NCBI RefSeq assembly: GCF_000039765.1
Contig: NC_004459.3
Span: forward strand, 3,226,104-3,258,103
Length of the DNA stretch: 32,000 bases
Direction of reading: 5' to 3'
DNA from: Vibrio vulnificus CMCP6
GTDB taxonomy: Bacteria; Pseudomonadota; Gammaproteobacteria; Enterobacterales; Vibrionaceae
In this document: in pieces, positions 4,456 to 32,000 of the stretch
Layout of the letters: the number at the start of each line of letters is the position of its first letter
How positions within the stretch are numbered: the stretch's first letter is position 1
Position numbers and translations under genes: made by a program
The notes under the pieces: generated by a model
What the model saw: only the letters and a program-made list of their open reading frames with translations
Databases searched by the model: none
Told to the model about the DNA's origin: nothing

Positions 4456-5037
4456 ATGAAAAAAATTATGCTGGCGTGTTCAACATTATTACTTTCCCAA
4501 CCGGTTTTCGCGGAAAAAATGGGCGAGTTGCCGAACTACTTTTACCTTGGTGCAGGCACCATTGCTTTTGACGTTTCTGCTTACGGCGACAACAGTGGCA
4601 GCGAGCTTTCAACCCCAAACTTTACGATCGGCTTTGGTAAAAACTTCAATGAACATGTTGCTGTAGAAGGTCTGTTTCGCTACACGCAAAATGAAGTCAC
4701 CAACAGCACGACAGGAACCAGCCTTAACCTAGACTATTATCAAGCGGGCGTTTCCGCTCTGCTCTCCACGGGCAACTTAGGGGATACCCCGATTTCACTT
4801 TTCGGTCGCTTGTCGGGTTTAATCACCCAAGCAAACATGTATGACGTAACGAACAACGCAGTGAAAATCTCTGAAGAAGCGGGAATGATTTTCAACGTCG
4901 GGGGCGGATTAGGCTGGGATATGGGGCAAAATTTCTGGCTGAAAGCCGAATATGTCTATAGCTTTGCTGACGCAGGCTTTGACGATTTTTACGATAAGTA
5001 TTCTGGTTTTCAACTCTCTATCGGTAAGCAGTTCTAG
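4456..5037 (+). CDS. Small outer-membrane beta-barrel protein (OmpA-like transmembrane barrel / OmpW-size family)
   Basis: 193 aa. Signal peptide MKKIMLACSTLLLSQPVFA, alternating aromatic/hydrophobic beta-strand pattern, and a C-terminal Phe (SIGKQF) typical of BAM substrates. Confidence 0.7.
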   Translation: MKKIMLACSTLLLSQPVFAEKMGELPNYFYLGAGTIAFDVSAYGDNSGSELSTPNFTIGFGKNFNEHVAVEGLFRYTQNEVTNSTTGTSLNLDYYQAGVSALLSTGNLGDTPISLFGRLSGLITQANMYDVTNNAVKISEEAGMIFNVGGGLGWDMGQNFWLKAEYVYSFADAGFDDFYDKYSGFQLSIGKQF

Positions 5038-22714: not shown

Positions 22715-23929
22715 ATGCAAAATATCGGGATGTCGTCAAAACTCGACAATGTCTGCTATGACATCAGGGGTCCTGTACTCAAACATGCTAAGCGCATGGA
22801 AGAAGAAGGGCATAAAATCCTTAAGCTAAATATTGGAAACCCCGCCCCATTTGGCTTTGACGCCCCTGATGAAATTCTGGTCGATGTGATTCGTAACTTG
22901 CCTACGTCGCAAGGTTACTGCGATTCAAAAGGCATCTACTCAGCACGTAAAGCCGTGGTACAGCACTACCAACGCAAAGGCATTCGTTCTCTCGATGTGG
23001 AAGATGTCTACGTGGGCAATGGCGTCTCTGAGCTGATCGTGATGGCCATGCAAGCACTGCTTAACAACGGTGACGAAATGCTGGTTCCAGCACCAGACTA
23101 CCCATTATGGACCGCTGCCGTGGCACTTTCGGGTGGTAAAGCGGTGCATTACCTCTGTGATGAGCAAGCAGACTGGTACCCTGATCTGGATGATATGCGC
23201 AAAAAAATCACGCCTAAGACTCGTGGTATTGTACTCATCAACCCAAATAACCCAACGGGTGCCGTCTACAGCCGCGATTTTCTACTGGAAGTGATCGAAA
23301 TCGCGCGTCAACACAAGCTGATGATTTTCGCCGATGAAATCTACGACAAGGTGTTGTACGACGGAGCGGTTCACACCTCAGTCGCGACCTTAACTGACGA
23401 TGTGCTGGTGATGACGTTTAACGGCCTATCAAAAGCCTATCGCGTATGTGGTTTCCGTGGTGGTTGGATGTTTATGACCGGACCAAAACATTTAGCGCAA
23501 GGCTATGTTAACGGTTTGGACATGCTGGCTTCGATGCGCCTGTGCGCCAACGTGCCAATGCAACACGCGATTCAAACTGCCTTGGGGGGCTATCAGAGCA
23601 TCAATGAATTGATCTTACCTGGCGGTCGTTTATTGGAGCAACGTGATCGCGCATGGGAGTTGATCAACCAAATCCCTGGCGTTTCATGTGTGAAACCAAA
23701 AGGCGCAATGTATCTGTTCCCTAAGATTGATACGAAAAAATACAGCATCAAAGATGACCAAAAGATGGTTTTTGATTTTCTCGTTCAAGAAAAAGTGTTG
23801 TTAGTGCAGGGTTCTGGATTCAACTGGCCAAAACCAGACCACTTCCGCATTGTCACTCTACCGCATATCGAAGATCTCGAAACCGCCATTGGCCGCTTTG
23901 AACGTTTCTTACATGGCTATAGCCAGTAG
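22715..23929 (+). CDS. alaA: Glutamate-pyruvate aminotransferase AlaA (YfbQ)
   Basis: 404 aa. Near-collinear identity with E. coli AlaA as I recall it (SSKLDNVCYDIRGPVL, LKLNIGNPAPFGFDAPDEILVDVIRNLP, NGLSKAYRVCGFR with the PLP lysine). It sits upstream of yfbR, as in E. coli. Confidence 0.92.
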   Translation: MQNIGMSSKLDNVCYDIRGPVLKHAKRMEEEGHKILKLNIGNPAPFGFDAPDEILVDVIRNLPTSQGYCDSKGIYSARKAVVQHYQRKGIRSLDVEDVYVGNGVSELIVMAMQALLNNGDEMLVPAPDYPLWTAAVALSGGKAVHYLCDEQADWYPDLDDMRKKITPKTRGIVLINPNNPTGAVYSRDFLLEVIEIARQHKLMIFADEIYDKVLYDGAVHTSVATLTDDVLVMTFNGLSKAYRVCGFRGGWMFMTGPKHLAQGYVNGLDMLASMRLCANVPMQHAIQTALGGYQSINELILPGGRLLEQRDRAWELINQIPGVSCVKPKGAMYLFPKIDTKKYSIKDDQKMVFDFLVQEKVLLVQGSGFNWPKPDHFRIVTLPHIEDLETAIGRFERFLHGYSQ

Positions 23930-23957
23930 TAATTATTGTTAAACTTTCATATGCTTA

Positions 23958-23985
23958 AAGGTGTTCCATAGGAACACCTTTTTTC
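23958..23985 (+). terminator. Rho-independent terminator after alaA
   Basis: AAGGTGTTCC / ATA / GGAACACCTT followed by TTTTT. Confidence 0.7.
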
Positions 23986-24009
23986 TAACTGCGTTTTGAG
24001 GTGACTATC

Positions 24010-24243
24010 GTGCAAGAAAGCCATTTTTTCGCTCATTTGGCTCGTATGAAGCTAATTCAACGCTGGCCATTAATGCGCTCTGTCTCCAGTGAGAATGTCT
24101 CTGAGCACAGTTTGCAGGTCGCCTTTGTTGCCCATGCTTTAGCGCTGATCAAAAACAAGAAGTTTGGTGGTCACATCAATGCAGAGCGGGTGGCCGTGTT
24201 GGCCATGTATCACGATAGTAGTGAGGTTTTGACTGGTGATTAG
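24010..24243 (+). pseudogene. yfbR: 5' fragment of yfbR (HD-domain 5'-deoxynucleotidase), truncated by an insertion
   Basis: The product (M)[22 protein letters not shown]...[15 protein letters not shown]...[13 protein letters not shown] aligns with residues 1 to about 78 of the 199-aa E. coli YfbR. It then hits a TAG at 24241-24243 supplied by the foreign DNA. The likely start is the GTG at 24010, with GAGG 9 nt upstream. The ORF track starts at 24001. Confidence 0.85.
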
Positions 24244-24284
24244 TTCGTTTTTCTAATATGAGTAAACCAGTGACTTAGTTCGTT
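24236..24284 (+). repeat. Direct repeat TTAGTTCGTT (x2, 35 bp apart) at the element terminus
   Basis: GTGATTAGTTCGTT at 24236-24249 spans the junction. GTGACTTAGTTCGTT lies at 24270-84. The exact 10-mer is at 24240-24249 and 24275-24284. Confidence 0.6.
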
Positions 24285-24326
24285 AATACACATAAGTTAC
24301 CATTAGACTATTGTAAGGATATTCAG

Positions 24327-24926
24327 TTGAAAAAATCACAAAGTACATTCATGGCATGGGTGACACGTATGCCATTAATAAAACGCTGGGCATTAATGCA
24401 CTGCTTTCAAGAAGAAAATGTTTCAGAACATTCTCATCAGGTTGCGGTAATAGCTCACTTATTAACTGTCATTAAAAACAAACGATATGGCGGTAACTTA
24501 AATCCAGAAAAAGCTGCAGTTACCGCCATTTATCATGAAATATCAGAAACAAAACTTCAGGATATAAATTCAAAAACCAAGTACCACAGCCCTGAATTTA
24601 CAGCAGCATTTAAAAAACTTGAAGATATTGCAGAAAAAGAATGTTTAGAAACATTACCAGAGGATTTACGTAATGAGTTCTCAGATTTACTTGTTCAAAA
24701 AAATGTAGACGCTGAATATAAAGCGATTGTAAAAGCAGCAGATATTCTATCAGCTTATATAAAGACTCTAAACGAACTTCGATTTAACAATGATGAATTT
24801 TTACATGTCAAAAAAGGACTTGATCCAAAAATTAAAAGACTTATTACTGAAATGCCTGAAGTAAAAGATTTTATGGATGTATTTTGTGATAGTTGCACTA
24901 CTACGTTTGACAAAATATCAGGATAA
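24327..24926 (+). CDS. Element-encoded full-length YfbR-like HD-domain nucleotidase paralog
   Basis: 199 aa with a TTG start and an AAGGA Shine-Dalgarno 7 nt upstream. It is collinear with YfbR over its whole length (MPLIKRWALM, ENVSEHSHQVA, YGGNLNPEKAAV, KAADILSAYIK, ELRFNNDEF). It is strongly diverged from the host fragment and has AT-rich codon usage. Confidence 0.8.
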   Translation: MKKSQSTFMAWVTRMPLIKRWALMHCFQEENVSEHSHQVAVIAHLLTVIKNKRYGGNLNPEKAAVTAIYHEISETKLQDINSKTKYHSPEFTAAFKKLEDIAEKECLETLPEDLRNEFSDLLVQKNVDAEYKAIVKAADILSAYIKTLNELRFNNDEFLHVKKGLDPKIKRLITEMPEVKDFMDVFCDSCTTTFDKISG

Positions 24927-25244
24927 ATAATACCTCTCGGTATCTATAGAGTTTTAAAAAAAAGCAGAATCTGTAATCACGCATAACTTCATCACACATG
25001 CGTTATCAATATGAGTAACGTATGTAAAATGTGTTTTAACTCAAACTTTTACATAAAATCAACACATCAAAATTTACATACAACGCCAAGTTTGGTAACG
25101 TAAAATTGTAAAGGTTATCGTCACCTAGCCCGACTCAAGGCAAAGACGATAGTTTTGAATAGACAAAGTAATCACTTTTCAGTGGCATTTTGCATGAGAG
25201 TCGCATAGCAAACTTCAATGCTGCACTACGACCAAGGTGAAACT

Positions 25245-25829
25245 ATGTCTAAAAACCATTCATTACCTCAAATTTCTCCATCCGACATCTTTAAGTTAAA
25301 AGCAAAACAATTTTCATTGTTAATAACCAAAATATCAGGTTTTAGTAATATACCGTCAAAAAAAAGGTATGATTGGTTAGCTCATGCTCTAGGTTATAAA
25401 GACCACAATGATTTATTACACTCTAATTATCTTAGAAGAATTACTGATAACCGTAATATCCTAAATATTTTTAGTAATAAAAAACAACGAGAAGACATAA
25501 TTAATATTTTCTGCTCTAACCTTCCTGACGTATCAAAGAAACATATAAGTGATGCTACTATTTTAATGGCTATTATAGAAAAGCCAGAATATAAAAAGTT
25601 ACTATTTTCACTAATACATAGTGGAATTAGATACCCCTCAATTTCTGGGTTAATTACACCTAAAAATAATAAAATAATCACATATAAATTAAACATCCCA
25701 AGAATAAAATCAGCACACCAAAGCCTACCAAATAACACCATCAACAAAAACCATATATTTTCGTTTTCAAAATTTCGTGAAGATTATGTTAAAAACACAT
25801 TATCAGAAAACTTAACGACAAATAAATGA
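25245..25829 (+). CDS. Hypothetical protein, lead gene of the recombinase operon
   Basis: The ORF track starts at 25218. The ATG at 25245 has an AAGGTGA Shine-Dalgarno. The stop overlaps the next start (ATGA at 25826-25829). No family recognised. Confidence 0.5.
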   Translation: MSKNHSLPQISPSDIFKLKAKQFSLLITKISGFSNIPSKKRYDWLAHALGYKDHNDLLHSNYLRRITDNRNILNIFSNKKQREDIINIFCSNLPDVSKKHISDATILMAIIEKPEYKKLLFSLIHSGIRYPSISGLITPKNNKIITYKLNIPRIKSAHQSLPNNTINKNHIFSFSKFREDYVKNTLSENLTTNK

Positions 25830-27703
25830 AATATAGATTTGGTGAAATGGGAAATAAAAAAGTATCTATCGGAAACTTATCCGCAAAAATAATAAGTGGG
25901 AAAAACATAAGTATCGGTGATAAAAGTGCACTTGGTGAATTAATTAAATATTTAAAAAAAGAGAATAAAAGTAAATTAATAACAACCAACTTTGATGATG
26001 TTGAATTTCTTAAATTTCTGAAATATTTATCTACGATTAAAACGACAAAACGCCGATATCAAATTTCTGTTGCAGTAAGACGCCTTATTGCTGAAGAATT
26101 TCACAACGGAGTTGTTTTCACTATATCACCCGACGAATGGCCTGTTCCGGAAAAACCGAGACCAACGCATTTTCAACCACTAAGCTCAGAACAAATAGTC
26201 AAATTGGAAGAATTTCTAAGAGAAGAAATTGACGTTGCTTATAAGAAAGATGAAATTTTTCAGAGTGCCCGAAAATCAGGAGTGGTTAGCAACAAAATCG
26301 GCATCGACTTTTGGCACCGAGCTAACCCAGATCCAGCGTTACCTAGATTTACTGACTGGCATGAAAGCCTAAAAAATGCCATTGCTACAATATATTCTAT
26401 TCATCCAAATTTTCCTAATAATGCATCAAATGAAGATTTGGCAGAAAATGGAAAATTTTATATTCCCAAAGACCTTACATATACAAATCTTACAACAACA
26501 TTTAAAACCCTCGCAAAGAGAATGGTCATGCAAAACATTCCTGGGTACACTTCATTTGTATTAGAAGCCCCAGAACTAACATATACAAAATTAATATCAT
26601 ATATCTACCCGGATTTACGTGAACTGATCGCTATTAAAATAGCGATTTGCTTCGAAACTGGTTGGTCACCCGATATCACCGAACGAATAGATCCAGATGA
26701 TTATATTTATGACCCAATTCCTATGGAAAATGACTGGGTATTTATTAAATCAACAAAAGCAAAGGGAGCTTCTGTAAATAAGAAAACAAGACTTCGCGAA
26801 CAGAGATTGATGATTCATCCTAGTTCAAAAACTGATAAATACAGTGCGTATAATTTAATAAAATTACTAGTAAAAAGAACTTCAACATTACGAAAAGGAC
26901 ATTTATACGAGAAAGCAACTACAGATCTTGACGTTCACCCTGCATTCATAAGTTTAGTAGTAAATGCTGGTCTAAAATTTGTAGCGCATTACCCATGCCG
27001 TAAAGGTGTTAATAGAAGTTCAAGTAGCAAGTTCATTGAAAAAAGTATTGGGTATAAGTTGGATCTAAGACGACTCAGGCCAACTCGATTGTATCTAAAT
27101 GAAAAAGAAAAAAAGCTGCCGCTATTGCTTCAAGTCGCGCTATTTGGGCACTCAACATCTGCAATTACTGACGAGGTTTATAAAGACAACTCCCACTTCC
27201 AACAGCTAAGAAATGACAAACTAGCAATGGAATTAGATAGTATATTCGACAGTATTCGTGATGGTTCTTTCAAAGGAAAACTAGTTCCATTAAAACAAAG
27301 AACATGTATCAAAAAAAAGATAATAAATATCTATACAAACCACAATGGCGAGTCACCATTAGCAATCTGTAATAACCCATACTACCCCACCTGGCACTTG
27401 TCTGATGGTGGACAAATTCCCAGATCAAATAAACCATGCAAACAATTTAACAAATGTCTTACGTGTCAACAATCATCCGTTACCAGTGACAACATTCCAT
27501 TTGTAGTAGATAGATTCCTCTATTTAGATCAGAAACGACGCTCAATGCGAAGTGACCAGTTTGATTGCATGTATAGGGAAGAATATGAAGCAGCAAAAGA
27601 AGTCATCGAATCATGGCCTTATCAAGAAGATATTCAAGAAGCTGAGTTGAGAAACGCTGTTGATGGATACCTACTTCCACCTATTATTTCAGAGAGTAAC
27701 TAA
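25826..27703 (+). CDS. Large (625 aa) tyrosine-recombinase-fold protein with an apparently incomplete catalytic set
   Basis: Box II-like LRRLRPTRLY and LFGHSTSAITDEVYKD (His and the candidate Tyr nucleophile) are present. The box I position reads FETGWSPDI, with Ser where the TGxR arginine is expected. A C-terminal extension of about 170 aa carries a Cys cluster. Confidence 0.65.
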   Translation: MKYRFGEMGNKKVSIGNLSAKIISGKNISIGDKSALGELIKYLKKENKSKLITTNFDDVEFLKFLKYLSTIKTTKRRYQISVAVRRLIAEEFHNGVVFTISPDEWPVPEKPRPTHFQPLSSEQIVKLEEFLREEIDVAYKKDEIFQSARKSGVVSNKIGIDFWHRANPDPALPRFTDWHESLKNAIATIYSIHPNFPNNASNEDLAENGKFYIPKDLTYTNLTTTFKTLAKRMVMQNIPGYTSFVLEAPELTYTKLISYIYPDLRELIAIKIAICFETGWSPDITERIDPDDYIYDPIPMENDWVFIKSTKAKGASVNKKTRLREQRLMIHPSSKTDKYSAYNLIKLLVKRTSTLRKGHLYEKATTDLDVHPAFISLVVNAGLKFVAHYPCRKGVNRSSSSKFIEKSIGYKLDLRRLRPTRLYLNEKEKKLPLLLQVALFGHSTSAITDEVYKDNSHFQQLRNDKLAMELDSIFDSIRDGSFKGKLVPLKQRTCIKKKIINIYTNHNGESPLAICNNPYYPTWHLSDGGQIPRSNKPCKQFNKCLTCQQSSVTSDNIPFVVDRFLYLDQKRRSMRSDQFDCMYREEYEAAKEVIESWPYQEDIQEAELRNAVDGYLLPPIISESN

Positions 27704-29646
27704 TGAAACTAATAAACTTTGGCGAGATCAACATTGATAAAGACATTCAAATATCAGAAGAAATAAATTTCAAATATAATGTTTGGAGAATTCAATATTC
27801 ACAATCAGAACATATATCACTAAACTTTGAAAATTTTAGTGAAAATAATAATGTATCTAACTATAACGATTTGGTAATTTTAATAAAAATACTAACTTAT
27901 TATGAATTCCCTAAATTATTCAATTTAAACATAACCAGTTGGTTGACAACAAATCATCGCCATTCATATTTTATTAATGTCGCTAAAAATTTTCTCCTTG
28001 ATTCTGGATTTACATCTAGAAAAATGCTTTCTAATATTACTTTAAGTCAATGTAAAGGATATATTGAAGATTGCATTTCACTATTTAAAAAAAGAATACC
28101 AGGTTCAATAACAAAACTGGATAGTGCAATATATTTTTTTGACAGATGGAGTGAATTATCTCACAAAAAAAGGTTACCAAAAGAATTCAGATTTGAATAC
28201 GATAAGTATGATATTTTAGATAAAGAAAAACGTGCTGAACTAAGAACTCTCAAAGATGAACAATGCGATCCATGGCAACCATTGGATTCAGAAATTGTAA
28301 AATCCGTTTTCGATGAATCATTAAAATATATACAAACTTTATCTCCAACAATTATTAAATGCTCCAATTTAGTAAAAGAAAAAGGACGACGAGACGATGG
28401 TTCTTCTTGGGGAACCATAAGAAAAGATGGTCGTACAAAACATATTTTTAAAGTACTCGAGAACATGGAAATTCCAGACATATATGATGGAGTTAAACTT
28501 TTCAATTTTAAGCCTGTAACCAAAGAGGTTACTTCTTTAGGTTACGCCAGTGGGAAGCAAGATAGAACAACAATACCAACCAATGAAATACGGCCAGCAG
28601 TTATAAAACTAAAACGAAGTTGTATATTTATTATAGGGTTATTTACTGGTTTAAGGCGTCGTGAGATTGCATCACTAAAGGCTAAGCCAGCATATAAAAA
28701 AAATGATTGTTTATACTTAGATATTATACGTTTTAAGCAAGCCGCCGATTCAGAACAAGAAGGTGAAGAAGATAGTATCCCTATACCAAAAATTGTTGGT
28801 GATGCTATTGATATATTAATTGAATTATTTGCTATCAGCCGAAAGACATTAAATAGCCAATATCTTTTGGTAACAGATATGCCTTCTAAAAAGAATTTCG
28901 AAAAAATAAAAATTGATACAATTACAAAAGACATTAGAAAAATAGTCGCTGATATGACAGATGTAACAGATGCTCACCCACACCAGCTGCGAAAAACTAT
29001 CGCATGGTTACTGATTTCTAGAAGTGAAAAAAACATTGATCTTATTCGTCAGCTCTTTGGTCATAAAAGTTATGGTATGACACTTCGATATATAATGCGC
29101 AACGAATTAATGGTAGAGAGTGTAATAGAGTTGTTAGAACACAACTACACAGAAGATCTACAAGAAATATTCGAGGCTATCAATAATAATAATACAGCGG
29201 GAGATCTATCAGATAAAATCAAAAAACGTATGGAAGAGCAAATTTATCCAGGTAGCATATTGGTAACCGATATTGAATCCTATGTGCGTGAATCACTAAA
29301 AGCTGGTATACCTTTGTTCGTATCGAGAGTCCCCATTGGTGGTTTCTGCATAAACGCGGGTAATGAAGATTCTATCCCACCATGTATGATGAAAACCAAT
29401 TCAAAAAGACCATGCGTTGATTTCTGTAACTACAAAGTGTGTGATTACCTAATTTTTAATGATGAATCAATTTCTAATATTCACTCTCAAATTAACTACT
29501 ACAAACAAAAGTTAAGCTATCTAGATGAATCAAGCAATGAAAAAGTTGTGACTTATTATCAAAAAGAAATTCTTGAACACAGAGAGCTTCTTGAGAGATT
29601 AGAAAATAAGAAAAATAACCAGAATTTTAAAAAGGCTCAATTATGA
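27703..29646 (+). CDS. Large (647 aa) tyrosine recombinase/integrase
   Basis: Canonical motifs: box I GLFTGLRRREIASL, box II AHPHQLRKTIAW, and LFGHKSYGMTLRYIM (His and Tyr nucleophile). It has a TAATG overlap with the upstream gene and a C-terminal Cys-rich extension. Confidence 0.85.
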   Translation: MKLINFGEINIDKDIQISEEINFKYNVWRIQYSQSEHISLNFENFSENNNVSNYNDLVILIKILTYYEFPKLFNLNITSWLTTNHRHSYFINVAKNFLLDSGFTSRKMLSNITLSQCKGYIEDCISLFKKRIPGSITKLDSAIYFFDRWSELSHKKRLPKEFRFEYDKYDILDKEKRAELRTLKDEQCDPWQPLDSEIVKSVFDESLKYIQTLSPTIIKCSNLVKEKGRRDDGSSWGTIRKDGRTKHIFKVLENMEIPDIYDGVKLFNFKPVTKEVTSLGYASGKQDRTTIPTNEIRPAVIKLKRSCIFIIGLFTGLRRREIASLKAKPAYKKNDCLYLDIIRFKQAADSEQEGEEDSIPIPKIVGDAIDILIELFAISRKTLNSQYLLVTDMPSKKNFEKIKIDTITKDIRKIVADMTDVTDAHPHQLRKTIAWLLISRSEKNIDLIRQLFGHKSYGMTLRYIMRNELMVESVIELLEHNYTEDLQEIFEAINNNNTAGDLSDKIKKRMEEQIYPGSILVTDIESYVRESLKAGIPLFVSRVPIGGFCINAGNEDSIPPCMMKTNSKRPCVDFCNYKVCDYLIFNDESISNIHSQINYYKQKLSYLDESSNEKVVTYYQKEILEHRELLERLENKKNNQNFKKAQL

Positions 29647-30743
29647 CTTTAAAGGAAAAGGATGTAGAAAATGTAATTGATATCCTTATCTCATCAGATT
29701 CTTTTAATGTAAAAAAACTAGCTGAGTATCTTAAGGTTTCTCGGTCCTATTTATATAAAGAATTCCGACATCTACTACCTAAACCAGCAAGTATCACCCA
29801 AAAAAGAATAGAAAATGCTATTTTACGAATTAGACAACGGACAGGTCGCTCTCTCTTAACTATTTCGGAAGTAGCAATAGAATCAGGAGTAAGCAGGCAA
29901 AGTATTTCTAGAGATTACAGTCATCTTTTATCTATGATAAAAGGTAAAAAATCTGTTGATATAATTCCTAATTCAACAACAGAATCAGAAGAAAAAATTA
30001 AATTCCTAGAAGATCAAATTTCTTCTCTTAGCATGAAAAATGAAGAATATGAAGAGAATATTAAGTTAAAGGTTTACTCCGATATGATGAAGCAAGATCT
30101 TGCTTCATTTACAGCCCAAAAGGACAAAGCAAATGCTATCAAGCTACAAAATCAAAATGATGAAATAATAGCTATTAATAAACAACAAATATCAGAACTA
30201 GCGGATCTACGATCGCAATTATCAGAATTAAAAAGAAAGTCTAAAACAATCATTCCCGGGTGTAATATTATTGCTCATATCAAACCAGATTATAGTAGTA
30301 TTTCATCAAAAATGGATTTAAAAACTTCAATGGAGATTTTCTTCGAAATAGAAGAAAAAAACATAAACGATGCCATTGATATCTGCTTCACTTCACAACC
30401 TAATTCAGTAATATTTTTTCAACCTTTTCTTAGTTGCAACTTTGAAAGTCTTGGTATTACTTTATCAAAAGGTGATGTTATTCTTATTGAAAGTAATTTT
30501 CCTCTTGCCAAGCAATTCAAAAAACTTTTACTAAATATAAGCGAAATTCCTGTCCATTCAATATCATGTAAAGGTCACGAATTACAATTGGCAAATTTCT
30601 ATTGTCGAAAGAATCACACCAATAAATTTAGCGAAGAGTTTATAGATAAGTTATATAAACTAATATCTTATCCAGATCAGAATGATGGTTTTAAATCTGT
30701 AACGCTCGTAAAGCCTAGCCCTTCTATTTCGGCGGTAAAATAG
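29643..30743 (+). CDS. Putative recombination accessory/DNA-binding protein: two HTH-like segments, a coiled coil and an unknown C-terminal domain
   Basis: 366 aa. VKKLAEYLKVSRSYLYKEF and ISEVAIESGVSRQSISRDY look like HTH units. Heptad-like stretches follow (EEKIKFLEDQISSLSMKNEEYEENIKLK and ISELADLRSQLSELKRK). It has an ATGA overlap with the upstream integrase. Confidence 0.5.
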   Translation: MTLKEKDVENVIDILISSDSFNVKKLAEYLKVSRSYLYKEFRHLLPKPASITQKRIENAILRIRQRTGRSLLTISEVAIESGVSRQSISRDYSHLLSMIKGKKSVDIIPNSTTESEEKIKFLEDQISSLSMKNEEYEENIKLKVYSDMMKQDLASFTAQKDKANAIKLQNQNDEIIAINKQQISELADLRSQLSELKRKSKTIIPGCNIIAHIKPDYSSISSKMDLKTSMEIFFEIEEKNINDAIDICFTSQPNSVIFFQPFLSCNFESLGITLSKGDVILIESNFPLAKQFKKLLLNISEIPVHSISCKGHELQLANFYCRKNHTNKFSEEFIDKLYKLISYPDQNDGFKSVTLVKPSPSISAVK

Positions 30744-30744
30744 T

Positions 30745-32000
30745 ATGCTTATTGAACGGAAATTAATTACATATCCATATGAAAGAACCGATTACTCTCA
30801 TTACATCCTAGTTTTAAAAATAAATGATAAGATAATATTGATGAGTGCTGTAAATCTATTTTTAAAAGAAAGGACATACAGAAGTTTTAAAACCAGCGAA
30901 CGGTATTCCAATATTTTAAAACGTTTCTTTCATTTTATAATAAAAAATAATGCCAACATAAGCCAAAATTTCTGGCGAGAAGTTACGGATAGCGATATTC
31001 GTGAATGGCAAGGATATATAATAAAAAAGAGAGATAATGAACACAAGAAAAGGCCAAAGGATGATACTATATATTTAGATGCTTGTATCGTTTTCGACTT
31101 CTATTCTTGGGCAGAAAGGAACCATTTTCCGGTTTTAATAAATTCAACAAGTGTTGACTGGAAATTTAATTTTCGAGATGAAAGCAAAATTTTATCAAGT
31201 AAAGGCATCCTATCAGGAAGTGTTCCAGATTATGCAAACATTGATATTCGTAACACACGAAGAAAGCAATTTAGAAGCTTTAATAATAAATCTGATACTA
31301 TAATGGAGTTTGAAAATATCATAGCTTTAGTAACATCATATAGTGATCTAGTTTATCCAGTAATGTTTCTTTTAGCACTAGCTACTGGTATGCGTGAACA
31401 GGGAGTATGCTCTTTCCCTTATATTGGAATCGGTGAAAATGATCATATTAGAACATATCCTGAAATAAAAAATTTGGTTCCCAAAGACCCCAAAGGAAAA
31501 ACTCCCAAAACATTTCCTTTCACTACTATAGAAAAAGGGAATAAAAAAAGAACTTTAAAGGTCAACATGTCTGCCTGGAAAATAATATGCAAAACATACT
31601 TACCACTTTATTACCAAAGAAAAAAATTATTTAGACAGAAATTTCCTCATAAAAACGATAATGCTGTATTCTTCTTGAATAAGGTCGGTAAACCCGTAAC
31701 ACCCAAAATGGTGTCAGATGCGACGAACCGAGCAAAAAAGAAACTTAATGACCAGCACTTTCATTGGTCATTTCACAGTACAAGGGACTGGTATGCCACA
31801 ATGTTTATTATCAAACACTTAACTCGAGAACAGATCAATGTAGCACATTATGACGCAGCTATTGAAGATGCTTTACGCAAACAACTAGGACACAGTGATA
31901 TCAGAACAACATACATGCATTACATCCGTGTAGCTTCTCTTCTGTTGGCAACACGTAATGGTGAATTAGATTTTTCGTTGGGGAATTCTGATGATTTTTG
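30745..32000 (+). CDS. Tyrosine recombinase/integrase, truncated at its 3' end by the window edge
   Basis: Not in the ORF track because it has no stop in the window. My translation from the ATG at 30745 is open to 32000 (418 codons). Motifs: LALATGMREQG (box I Arg), WSFHSTRDWYAT (HxxR) and LGHSDIRTTYMHYI (His and Tyr). It starts 1 nt after the previous stop. Confidence 0.85.
   Translation, partial: MLIERKLITYPYERTDYSHYILVLKINDKIILMSAVNLFLKERTYRSFKTSERYSNILKRFFHFIIKNNANISQNFWREVTDSDIREWQGYIIKKRDNEHKKRPKDDTIYLDACIVFDFYSWAERNHFPVLINSTSVDWKFNFRDESKILSSKGILSGSVPDYANIDIRNTRRKQFRSFNNKSDTIMEFENIIALVTSYSDLVYPVMFLLALATGMREQGVCSFPYIGIGENDHIRTYPEIKNLVPKDPKGKTPKTFPFTTIEKGNKKRTLKVNMSAWKIICKTYLPLYYQRKKLFRQKFPHKNDNAVFFLNKVGKPVTPKMVSDATNRAKKKLNDQHFHWSFHSTRDWYATMFIIKHLTREQINVAHYDAAIEDALRKQLGHSDIRTTYMHYIRVASLLLATRNGELDFSLGNSDDF

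Follow-up and report, generated by a model that had tools for sequence, protein, structure and literature searches.

Recombinase in trio (RIT) elements carry three genes, ritA, ritB, and ritC, for tyrosine recombinases of ordinary size, together with long inverted repeats, and are not known to have a helix-turn-helix (HTH)/coiled-coil partner. The transposon Tn554, with Firmicutes hosts, has the gene order tnpA-tnpB-tnpC and a 6-bp footprint (PMC10214605). In strand-biased circularizing integrative elements (SE; among them SE-6283, or Tn6283, and SE-6945), one strand is exchanged and the element is copied out, leaving no empty site, and all four genes of SE, as well as of GInt elements, are needed for the recombination of attL with attR (PMC10214605). 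SE-6283 inserts in the peroxiredoxin gene bcp and carries a bcp copy (PMC9345347). The defense island PDE1 of Vibrio lentus inserts in and truncates yfbR, and carries its own divergent yfbR and a type I restriction-modification system (Hussain et al. 2021, 10.1101/2021.03.26.437281); it was described with "integrases on the periphery," and its recombination module was not classified (10.1101/2021.03.26.437281). Here, we analyzed a stretch of 32,000 nucleotides of the Vibrio vulnificus CMCP6 genome (contig NC_004459.3; "the window"). Its right-hand part probably holds the left-end recombination module of a site-specific integrative island in yfbR, which is SE-like and has the ordinary recombinase last. 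The four proteins of the module, named Y2 to Y5 after their open reading frames (ORFs), are a recombinase-fold protein that lacks the first catalytic arginine (Arg-I), a large recombinase, an auxiliary protein, and an ordinary recombinase.

Results

The host yfbR is cut after the residues ...SSEVLTGD, and the TAG stop that closes the fragment comes from the first bases of the element. At ~24.2 kb, the GC content drops from ~0.48 to ~0.30, and a full-length second yfbR falls within the low-GC block (Table 1). An earlier note, made from the letters of this stretch, had named yfbR as the target. This was borne out by the truncated host fragment, by the element-borne yfbR, and by a conserved break codon: in the loci of relatives (numbered L) that cover the left junction (L002, L011, L012/L013, and L014), yfbR is broken at the identical codon (...EVLTGD|). 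The element yfbR stands just inside attL in L002, L008, L011, L012, and L014, and the layout with two arm copies was also found in L002, L010, L011, and L012. In Paraglaciecola sp. T6c (L006), a full-length yfbR lies upstream of the module with cargo between them, attL being outside the portion of the locus that was used.

Photobacterium marinum AK15 (L002) carries the whole element, ~13.7 kb long, at the same yfbR site. The 5′ part of the host yfbR is followed by the element yfbR, by genes for proteins of 614, 654, 366, and 425 amino acids (aa), by cargo (a RecD2-like helicase and an NTPase-TPR protein), and finally by the 3′ part of the host yfbR. The four genes were found in the same order within yfbR, with metal-efflux cargo, in T6c and in a Marinobacteraceae genome, and within yfbR also in V. 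parahaemolyticus/V. alginolyticus assemblies, V. lentus, and V. cyclitrophicus. Across the 8 lineages surveyed for gene order, Y2-Y3-Y4-Y5 is common to L002, L006, L008, L012, L014, and the P. aeruginosa plasmid pPUV-7, and in L016 Y5 is located at the right end; Y2-Y3-Y4 is the sole block that is invariably tight. The identity to the proteins of the window (Y2/Y3/Y4/Y5) is 58/63/59/68% in P. marinum, 44/46/36/54% in T6c, 40/40/28/44% in the Marinobacteraceae genome, 40/41/29/40% in a clade of Alteromonas-type metagenome elements, and 22/25/27/27% in pPUV-7. Judged from these values, the four genes diverge together.

The earlier note had read the locus as a unit of five genes. The five ORFs are present here, but the unit that is conserved is smaller: as gene content in the relatives indicates, the core is the four genes Y2 to Y5 plus the element yfbR. 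The core counts four genes and not five because ORF1 is limited to V. vulnificus/V. parahaemolyticus-type copies (L010 and L011). It is absent from L002, L006, L008, L012, L014, and L016, and its 90% cluster has 16 members, of which the named ones are nearly all Vibrio. The four-gene module was found in Vibrio, Photobacterium, Paraglaciecola, Marinobacteraceae, and Alteromonas and on a Pseudomonas megaplasmid, and most of the relatives lack ORF1.

The more distant relatives differ in layout and target. In the Alteromonas-type clade (L016 6174-20737; L015; L017), Y2-Y3-Y4 lie in the element's middle part and Y5 at its extreme right, beside the yfbR 3′ fragment; defense cargo with a YobI-type ATPase separates Y4 from Y5, and genes of the AbiJ-like and CBASS kinds are close by. 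In an intermediate clade, P0039 (L019-L021), a module of 734, 683, and 333 aa sits in a comM-like gene, with a truncated Mg-chelatase/ComM-like gene as its left flank, which shows that targets differ between clades. This module is followed by a 136-aa VPA1267-family gene and a 751-aa RecD2-like helicase, and a small protein with such a helicase is, judging by the gene neighborhoods, a recurrent accessory pair. A comparable pair, of a 182-aa protein and a 714-aa helicase, was observed after the module of P. marinum (L002 11202-13891).

Plasmid pPUV-7 (NZ_MT732185.1; L003 5050-12133) carries the four genes with products of 784, 700, 314, and 435 aa. They lie in a low-GC block (0.43-0.45 versus 0.58 for the plasmid) that contains just these genes and resembles a minimal element, ~7.1 kb long and without cargo. 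At 4999 and 12141, a possible direct repeat of 11 bp, CTAG(T/A)GATGCT, was noticed, and the plasmid family also bears true SEs. A duplication of the neighboring PAPS-reductase gene, as for yfbR here, was considered and rejected, given that the gene is present in a single copy only.

The spacing of Y5 varies among these lineages. It follows Y4 after 1 to 2 nt in Vibrionaceae and T6c, after 222 nt in Marinobacteraceae, and after 385 nt in pPUV-7. The Alteromonas clade has Y5 7.7 kb downstream, with cargo between, where it abuts attR and the yfbR 3′ part. These gaps would suit an ORF5 that is a stray integrase or that comes from a distinct element next door, the unit then being ORF1 to ORF4, as would the lack of an overlap between ORF5, alone among the genes, and its neighbor and the lack of a Y5 beside the module in the P0039 clade contigs. 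Such an origin is very improbable, however. In every examined lineage that is covered by a whole element, a Y5 homologue lies inside the yfbR-bounded element; its divergence parallels that of Y2 to Y4; and the low-GC block of pPUV-7 ends directly after Y5. Co-occurrence and parallel divergence argue that Y5 does belong to the element, which sets aside the concern, raised in the earlier note, that the third integrase might be part of a neighboring element.

Y3 and Y5 are complete recombinases. PF00589 matches both (E 2e-10 and E 1.4e-9, respectively), and Y3 also matches phrog_216 (E 4e-24). The R-K-H-R-H-Y set of Y3 is conserved across 9 lineages, and the full set of Y5 is conserved in all lineages. 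Y3 bears, in addition, its own Cys4-type Cys-rich extension at the C terminus. Given that phmmer searches of Y3 and Y5 against the PDB sequences returned no match at E ≤ 0.01, their catalytic residues were assigned from the family alignments and from alignments with the SE proteins IntA and IntB.

Y2 has no match in Pfam, NCBIfam, or PHROG, and its fold was explored using structure prediction. The AlphaFold (AF2) model, built on 27 homologues, has a predicted local distance difference test score (pLDDT) of 80. When it was compared with the PDB by Foldseek, the 21 best matches were all tyrosine recombinases (Tn1549 Int, XerH, Cre, IntI, and lambda Int), with E 0.014 for the best match, a probability of up to 1.0, and a target-normalized template modeling (TM) score of 0.45 to 0.50, which supports a recombinase fold. 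The motifs of Y2 align with the recombinase boxes (alignment A1). Arg-I is absent in all 103 superfamily sequences, its position being taken by N, S, or T (T-G-W-N/S/T; TGWS in the window). The other catalytic positions are kept, namely Lys311 (102/103), Arg418 (Arg-II; R in 99 and K in 4 of the 103), His442 (100/103), and Tyr452 (103/103), and the C-terminal Cys4 cluster, C515...C538-x5-C544-x2-C547, is present in every relative (103/103). The C-terminal half of Y2 pairs with Y3 in profile comparison (probability 89%). Among 1.84 billion representative proteins, a profile search with Y2 gave 133 matches, all of the Y2 or pPUV-784 type.

Y4 gave weak HTH matches in profile scans. Its AF2 model (pLDDT 73.5) has two N-terminal HTH motifs, a coiled-coil hairpin at ~111-200, and a C-terminal α/β domain at ~207-355. 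Foldseek returned for this model weak P-loop-kinase-like folds only (TM ~0.2), giving no functional call. The description of the five products in the earlier note was confirmed. Three recombinase-fold proteins, two of them larger than 600 aa, are present, Y3 and Y5 by their PF00589 matches and Y2 by its modeled fold. The profile hidden Markov model (HMM) searches that the note had called for matched PF00589 to ORF3 and ORF5 and gave a weak HTH in ORF4, but found none for ORF1 or ORF2. The HTH/coiled-coil protein of 366 aa was recovered in the model, with the α/β domain as an addition.

The module was then compared with SE, using SE-Pda04Ya311 on pAQU1 and SE-PaeBT2436 on pBT2436 (L004 and L005; coordinates from the SE survey) as references; the order intA-tfp-intB-srap was confirmed in both. 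The two systems share four recombination proteins of matching kinds: an ordinary recombinase with the Arg-His-Arg-Tyr (RHRY) residues, a ~600-aa recombinase-fold protein in which Arg-I is missing, a large RHRY recombinase (~650-680 aa) that is extended at its C terminus by a Cys-rich region, and an auxiliary protein of the HTH/coiled-coil type. In both systems, the tfp-like gene precedes that of the large recombinase, which in turn precedes the auxiliary gene. By hhalign, Y3 matches IntB with a probability of 87% over 317 columns, Cys-rich extension included, and the Cys4 extensions of the two align; Y5 matches IntA with a probability of 88% over 324 columns. Both elements, moreover, occur in marine and other gammaproteobacterial hosts, have a GC content below that of the host, and may share a 6-bp junction logic with short inverted ends, and SE-6283 likewise replaces the gene that it disrupts (bcp).

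Y2 also resembles Tfp in its motifs. In a census of 55 Tfp sequences, the Arg-I position is Asn in all 55 (T-G-x-N), the hairpin Lys is present in 54, the Arg of L-R-x-T (Arg-II) in 55, and the Tyr, ~32 residues past L-R-x-T, in 55. An invariant C-x28-C-x5-C-x2-C follows at a distance that matches Y2. Both proteins thus have TG-x-N/S, Lys, LR-x-T, an invariant Tyr, and C...C-x5-C-x2-C. Tfp, which is said in the literature to lack RHRY, was observed to lose only Arg-I and His-III (L004 9492-11336 and 55 homologues).

Such an agreement would be explained if the island belonged to the SE family and had merely diverged and taken on an unusual order of genes: the protein kinds are the same, IntB and IntA are the best profile matches of Y3 and Y5, Y2 and Tfp have derived motifs in common, the target gene is replaced, and one accepted SE already has an inverted srap. 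We consider membership unlikely, because the two kinds of element differ where SE are defined. The locus does have two RHRY recombinases, one ordinary and one large (Y5, 429 aa, and Y3, 647 aa), and in Y2 a recombinase-fold protein without the full catalytic set. None of the 8 lineages, on the other hand, shows the intA-tfp-intB-srap order that SE have at their left (motif C) end; the ordinary recombinase is first in SE and last, or at the far right end, here. Neither are Tfp or Srap orthologues detectable by sequence, the tfp-srap synteny block being what the defining survey located by PSI-BLAST. BLASTP and phmmer searches of Y2 and Y4 against Tfp and Srap gave no match, Tfp scores −1.6 bits with an HMM built from 27 Y2 sequences, and none of the 133 Y2 profile matches is Tfp-like. 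Y4 is more than twice as long as Srap (366 aa versus ~155 aa) and has a second HTH and the α/β domain; Y2 retains His-III, which is lost in Tfp; the arms are 8 bp long (in L002), versus imperfect C/C′ repeats of 13-19 bp in SE; and the target is yfbR. The SE terminal sequences have no similarity to the ends of this element.

The survey that defined SE missed the family. The T6c genome (NC_008228.1) carries a family member, yet its SE count was 0 after 11 PSI-BLAST rounds, and the accession is absent from the survey's SE and stored GInt locus lists. Because of this count, and because the BLASTP and HMM similarity of Y2 to Y5 to the SE and GInt proteins is that of recombinases in general, the family is neither SE nor GInt by operational criteria. 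We read it, from these comparisons, as a reordered distant relative or deep sister lineage of SE rather than as an SE under the definitions that were tested.

As a reference for GInt, that of E. coli Sakai (GinA to GinD) was used. It resembles the locus in having three integrase-like genes and a coiled-coil/helix protein in a single operon at an island's end, in its site-specific integration, and in its cargo, which is often made of defense genes, as in the E. coli GInts. Tn554, in turn, shares a strong target specificity and the pairing of a large with an ordinary recombinase. That the island is a GInt (Tn6571-family) or Tn554-family transposon is nevertheless hardly credible. BLASTP and hhalign of Y2 to Y5 against Sakai GinC and GinD gave no significant match, and the signal between Y3 and GinB is generic for recombinases (probability 51%, below IntB). 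Sakai GinC keeps Arg-I and has no C-x5-C-x2-C motif, GinD is 132 aa long versus 366 aa for Y4, and the two GInt recombinases are of ~400-440 aa, neither exceeding 600 aa. A ginA-ginB-ginC-ginD operon with GinA-D homologues was not found here. Tn554 is set apart by its composition: tnpA-tnpB-tnpC includes no Tfp-like third recombinase-fold protein, so that Y2 is additional, and its hosts are Firmicutes.

RIT elements share the three adjacent genes of the tyrosine recombinase family. They differ, by description only, in that three complete recombinases of ordinary length are their only core genes, whereas this locus has two proteins larger than 600 aa, one of them without Arg-I, and a core gene for a 366-aa protein that is not a recombinase.

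PDE1 shares with the window the yfbR truncation and the divergent element-borne yfbR (Table 1). The V. lentus-type locus L012 has exactly the features described for PDE1, the type I restriction-modification system included, and its left end holds the four-gene module, 56-61% identical to the window. L012 is very probably PDE1, on the basis of the published description, not of an accession. The island and its target-replacement trick had thus been seen before. Our literature searches, which included yfbR-targeting recombinase elements, Tn6571, and tfp/srap follow-ups, found no description of this recombination module. The suggestion that the locus represents a distinct or undescribed family is accordingly narrowed: the definitions of Tn554, RIT, SE, and GInt all leave it out, but it is a distant SE relative, and one member is very probably published. 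As a separate observation, PDE2 may be an SE of the SE-6283 type, a link that is absent from 10.1101/2021.03.26.437281 and PMC9345347.

Both junctions are available in P. marinum, where they read AAC-CGGTGA|TTAGTTCG... on the left and ...CGAACTAA|CGGTGA-TATGCC on the right. The ends are perfect 8-bp inverted arms, and CGGTGA flanks both. Joining of the ends would give an 8-6-8 palindromic core, CGAACTAA-N6-TTAGTTCG. Identical 6 bp at both ends and perfect inverted arms are also what classical attP x attB recombination produces. It is therefore possible that this is an ordinary excising island, in which Y3 and/or Y5 act by the classical two-step reaction and leave an empty site, Y2 and Y4 have directionality or regulatory roles, and the likeness to SE reflects ancestry. 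The single precise insertion position is consistent with this alternative, as are the HTH motifs of Y4 and its faint excisionase-type match. It is weakened by the conservation of four recombination genes, among them one for a recombinase paralogue whose Tyr is invariant, which is far beyond what a classical island needs; by the closest homologues, SE, which leave no empty sites; and by the attR of T6c, whose 6 bp deviate from the host as an SE-type footprint would.

Several observations weigh against an SE-like island with the module at its left end. The window does not include the right end, and the ends of this copy were inferred from a relative that is 58-68% identical. The terminal arms vary between clades. 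The right junction of T6c reads CGAAATAG-GTCGGA-CTTACC and lacks the expected host 6 bp (L006 18740-18790). A scan of metagenome and viral contigs for the joined ends, CGAACTAA-N6-TTAGTTCG, found no true junction among 116 chance matches (112 metagenome and 4 viral, about the number expected by chance for 16 fixed bases); none of the matching contigs has a gene for a family protein, and their spacers are unrelated. The Foldseek E-values of Y2 are weak, though the matches are mutually consistent. The comparison profiles for SE IntA, IntB, and Srap rest on two reference elements, and the Y4-Srap profile match is weak (probability 27%, versus 15% for GinD). The collinear profile alignment of Y2 with Tfp over 272 columns is likewise weak (P 0.011, probability 3.9%), and a shallower Y2-Tfp profile comparison was empty.

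In the T6c attR, the 6 bp were seen not to restore the expected host codons (...GGN GAC), so that the yfbR 3′ part does not keep the register that a simple duplication would give. A mutation, or an SE-type footprint of an earlier site, could account for this isolated, unexplained case.

Exactly at the crossover, the two yfbR genes of the window differ: that of the host reads ACT GGT GAT (core TGGTGA) and that of the element CTT CAG GAT (core TCAGGA). In L010 (8150-8410), the same element lies within a third, divergent yfbR-like gene that is cut at the homologous codon and has the core TCAGGA. Element-type yfbR genes can thus be secondary targets, which would permit the tandem build-up of islands.

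The features of the window are given in Table 1. The ORF call reproduced the ORFs and junctions of the earlier note, namely ATGA overlaps of ORF1 with ORF2 (25826-25829) and of ORF3 with ORF4 (29643-29646), TAATG between ORF2 and ORF3 (27701-27705), and a 1-nt gap between ORF4 and ORF5 (30744). The five products are identical to V. vulnificus database entries, strain CMCP6 among them. These overlaps suggest translational coupling of the ORFs. The overlap of ORF1 with ORF2 is insecure, since the start of ORF2 may be 25826 or the ATG at 25847; public annotations use the latter (618 aa). The frame of Y5 stops ~11 codons short at the end of the window, and its full length of 429 aa is seen in L010.

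Table 1. Features of the yfbR island and its recombination module in the window
Feature	Position	Strand	Description
Host yfbR 5′ fragment	24001-24243	+	80 codons; PF12917 E 4e-33, profile positions 1-73 of 182
attL	24234-24284	+	Host 6 bp TGGTGA, arm, and second arm copy
Host-side 6 bp TGGTGA	24234-24239	+	Component of attL
Terminal 8-bp arm TTAGTTCG	24240-24247	+	Abuts host sequence; element start
Second TTAGTTCG copy	24275-24282	+	35 bp inward, preceded by GTGAC; direct repeat D6
Element-borne full-length yfbR (5′-deoxynucleotidase)	24327-24926	+	PF12917 E 5e-62; NF003009 E 2e-75
ORF1	25245-25829 (alternative start 25218)	+	194 aa; ORF call
ORF2 (Y2)	25826-27703	+	625 aa; Tfp-like tyrosine-recombinase-fold protein
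ORF3 (Y3)	27703-29646	+	647 aa; large IntB-like catalytic tyrosine recombinase
ORF4 (Y4)	29643-30743	+	366 aa; HTH/coiled-coil auxiliary protein
ORF5 (Y5)	30745-32000	+	Open frame to window end, 418 of ~429 codons; IntA-like

ORF1 has an AAGGTGA Shine-Dalgarno sequence upstream of the ATG at 25245 and gave no match in Pfam, NCBIfam, or PHROG. It stands between the element yfbR and Y2, with an AT-rich spacer of 318 nt before it, and in other members the element yfbR and Y2 are 7-105 nt apart. From its distribution, ORF1 is lineage specific and outside the conserved module, and it may be a recent insertion into the junction of the element yfbR and Y2. The host genes menF and alaA lie upstream of the interrupted yfbR. 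An Rfam scan of 23900-32000 found no RNA family, and a scan for promoters and terminators found nothing beyond the expectation from shuffled sequence.

Discussion

In the SE-like island that we favor, Y3 and Y5 would catalyze the exchange of strands over the 6 bp in which the joined ends and the yfbR site overlap, while Y2 would sit on the core sites as a cleavage-deficient partner. Y4 may be an architectural or regulatory DNA-binding factor. By analogy with the SE and GInt knock-outs, all four proteins are probably required. The replacement yfbR would keep the host function intact, and, given the short distance that separates it from Y2 in most relatives, read-through from the yfbR side may reach the module. 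More speculatively, the combination of crippled and active protomers might limit exchange to one strand pair, which would lead to an SE-type copy-out.

A wider reading unites the yfbR islands and the relatives that target comM or lie on Pseudomonas plasmids in a third deep lineage of the SE/GInt kind, whose comparison with SE would explain how SE work. We find this rather doubtful as it stands. It would build on the loss of Arg-I by Y2 and Tfp in all sequences examined, with Tyr, hairpin Lys, and Arg-II strictly kept. A synaptic tetramer of Y2, Y3, and Y5 would then exchange one strand pair, so that the strand bias would be built in. Read-through across attL into the element yfbR, Y2, Y3, and Y4 (and Y5) would tie expression to the integrated state.

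What is new here, as the comparisons indicate, is an SE-like multi-recombinase module that the censuses missed; what was known is the phenotype of one very probable member, PDE1. SE/GInt-kind elements move genes for antibiotic resistance, metal resistance, and phage defense. The census of such elements relies on sequence searches seeded with few proteins, and this family shows that whole lineages are missed, one member lying in a genome for which the SE-defining survey counted none. Carriers include V. vulnificus, V. parahaemolyticus, V. cholerae-related species, and P. aeruginosa megaplasmids, and the cargo of the family includes type I restriction-modification, CBASS, AbiJ-like, NLR-like ATPase, and metal-efflux genes.

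Through this family, the machinery by which a published phage-defense element integrates very probably acquires a molecular identity. The split module of one clade shows that the ordinary recombinase need not be cotranslated with the other three proteins. The motifs common to Y2 and Tfp indicate the residues to mutate, namely the Tyr, the Lys, Arg-II, and the Cys4 cluster, as well as the position at which Arg-I is missing. For specialists in mobile elements, the main value of the family is a comparative handle on the Tfp-type protein.

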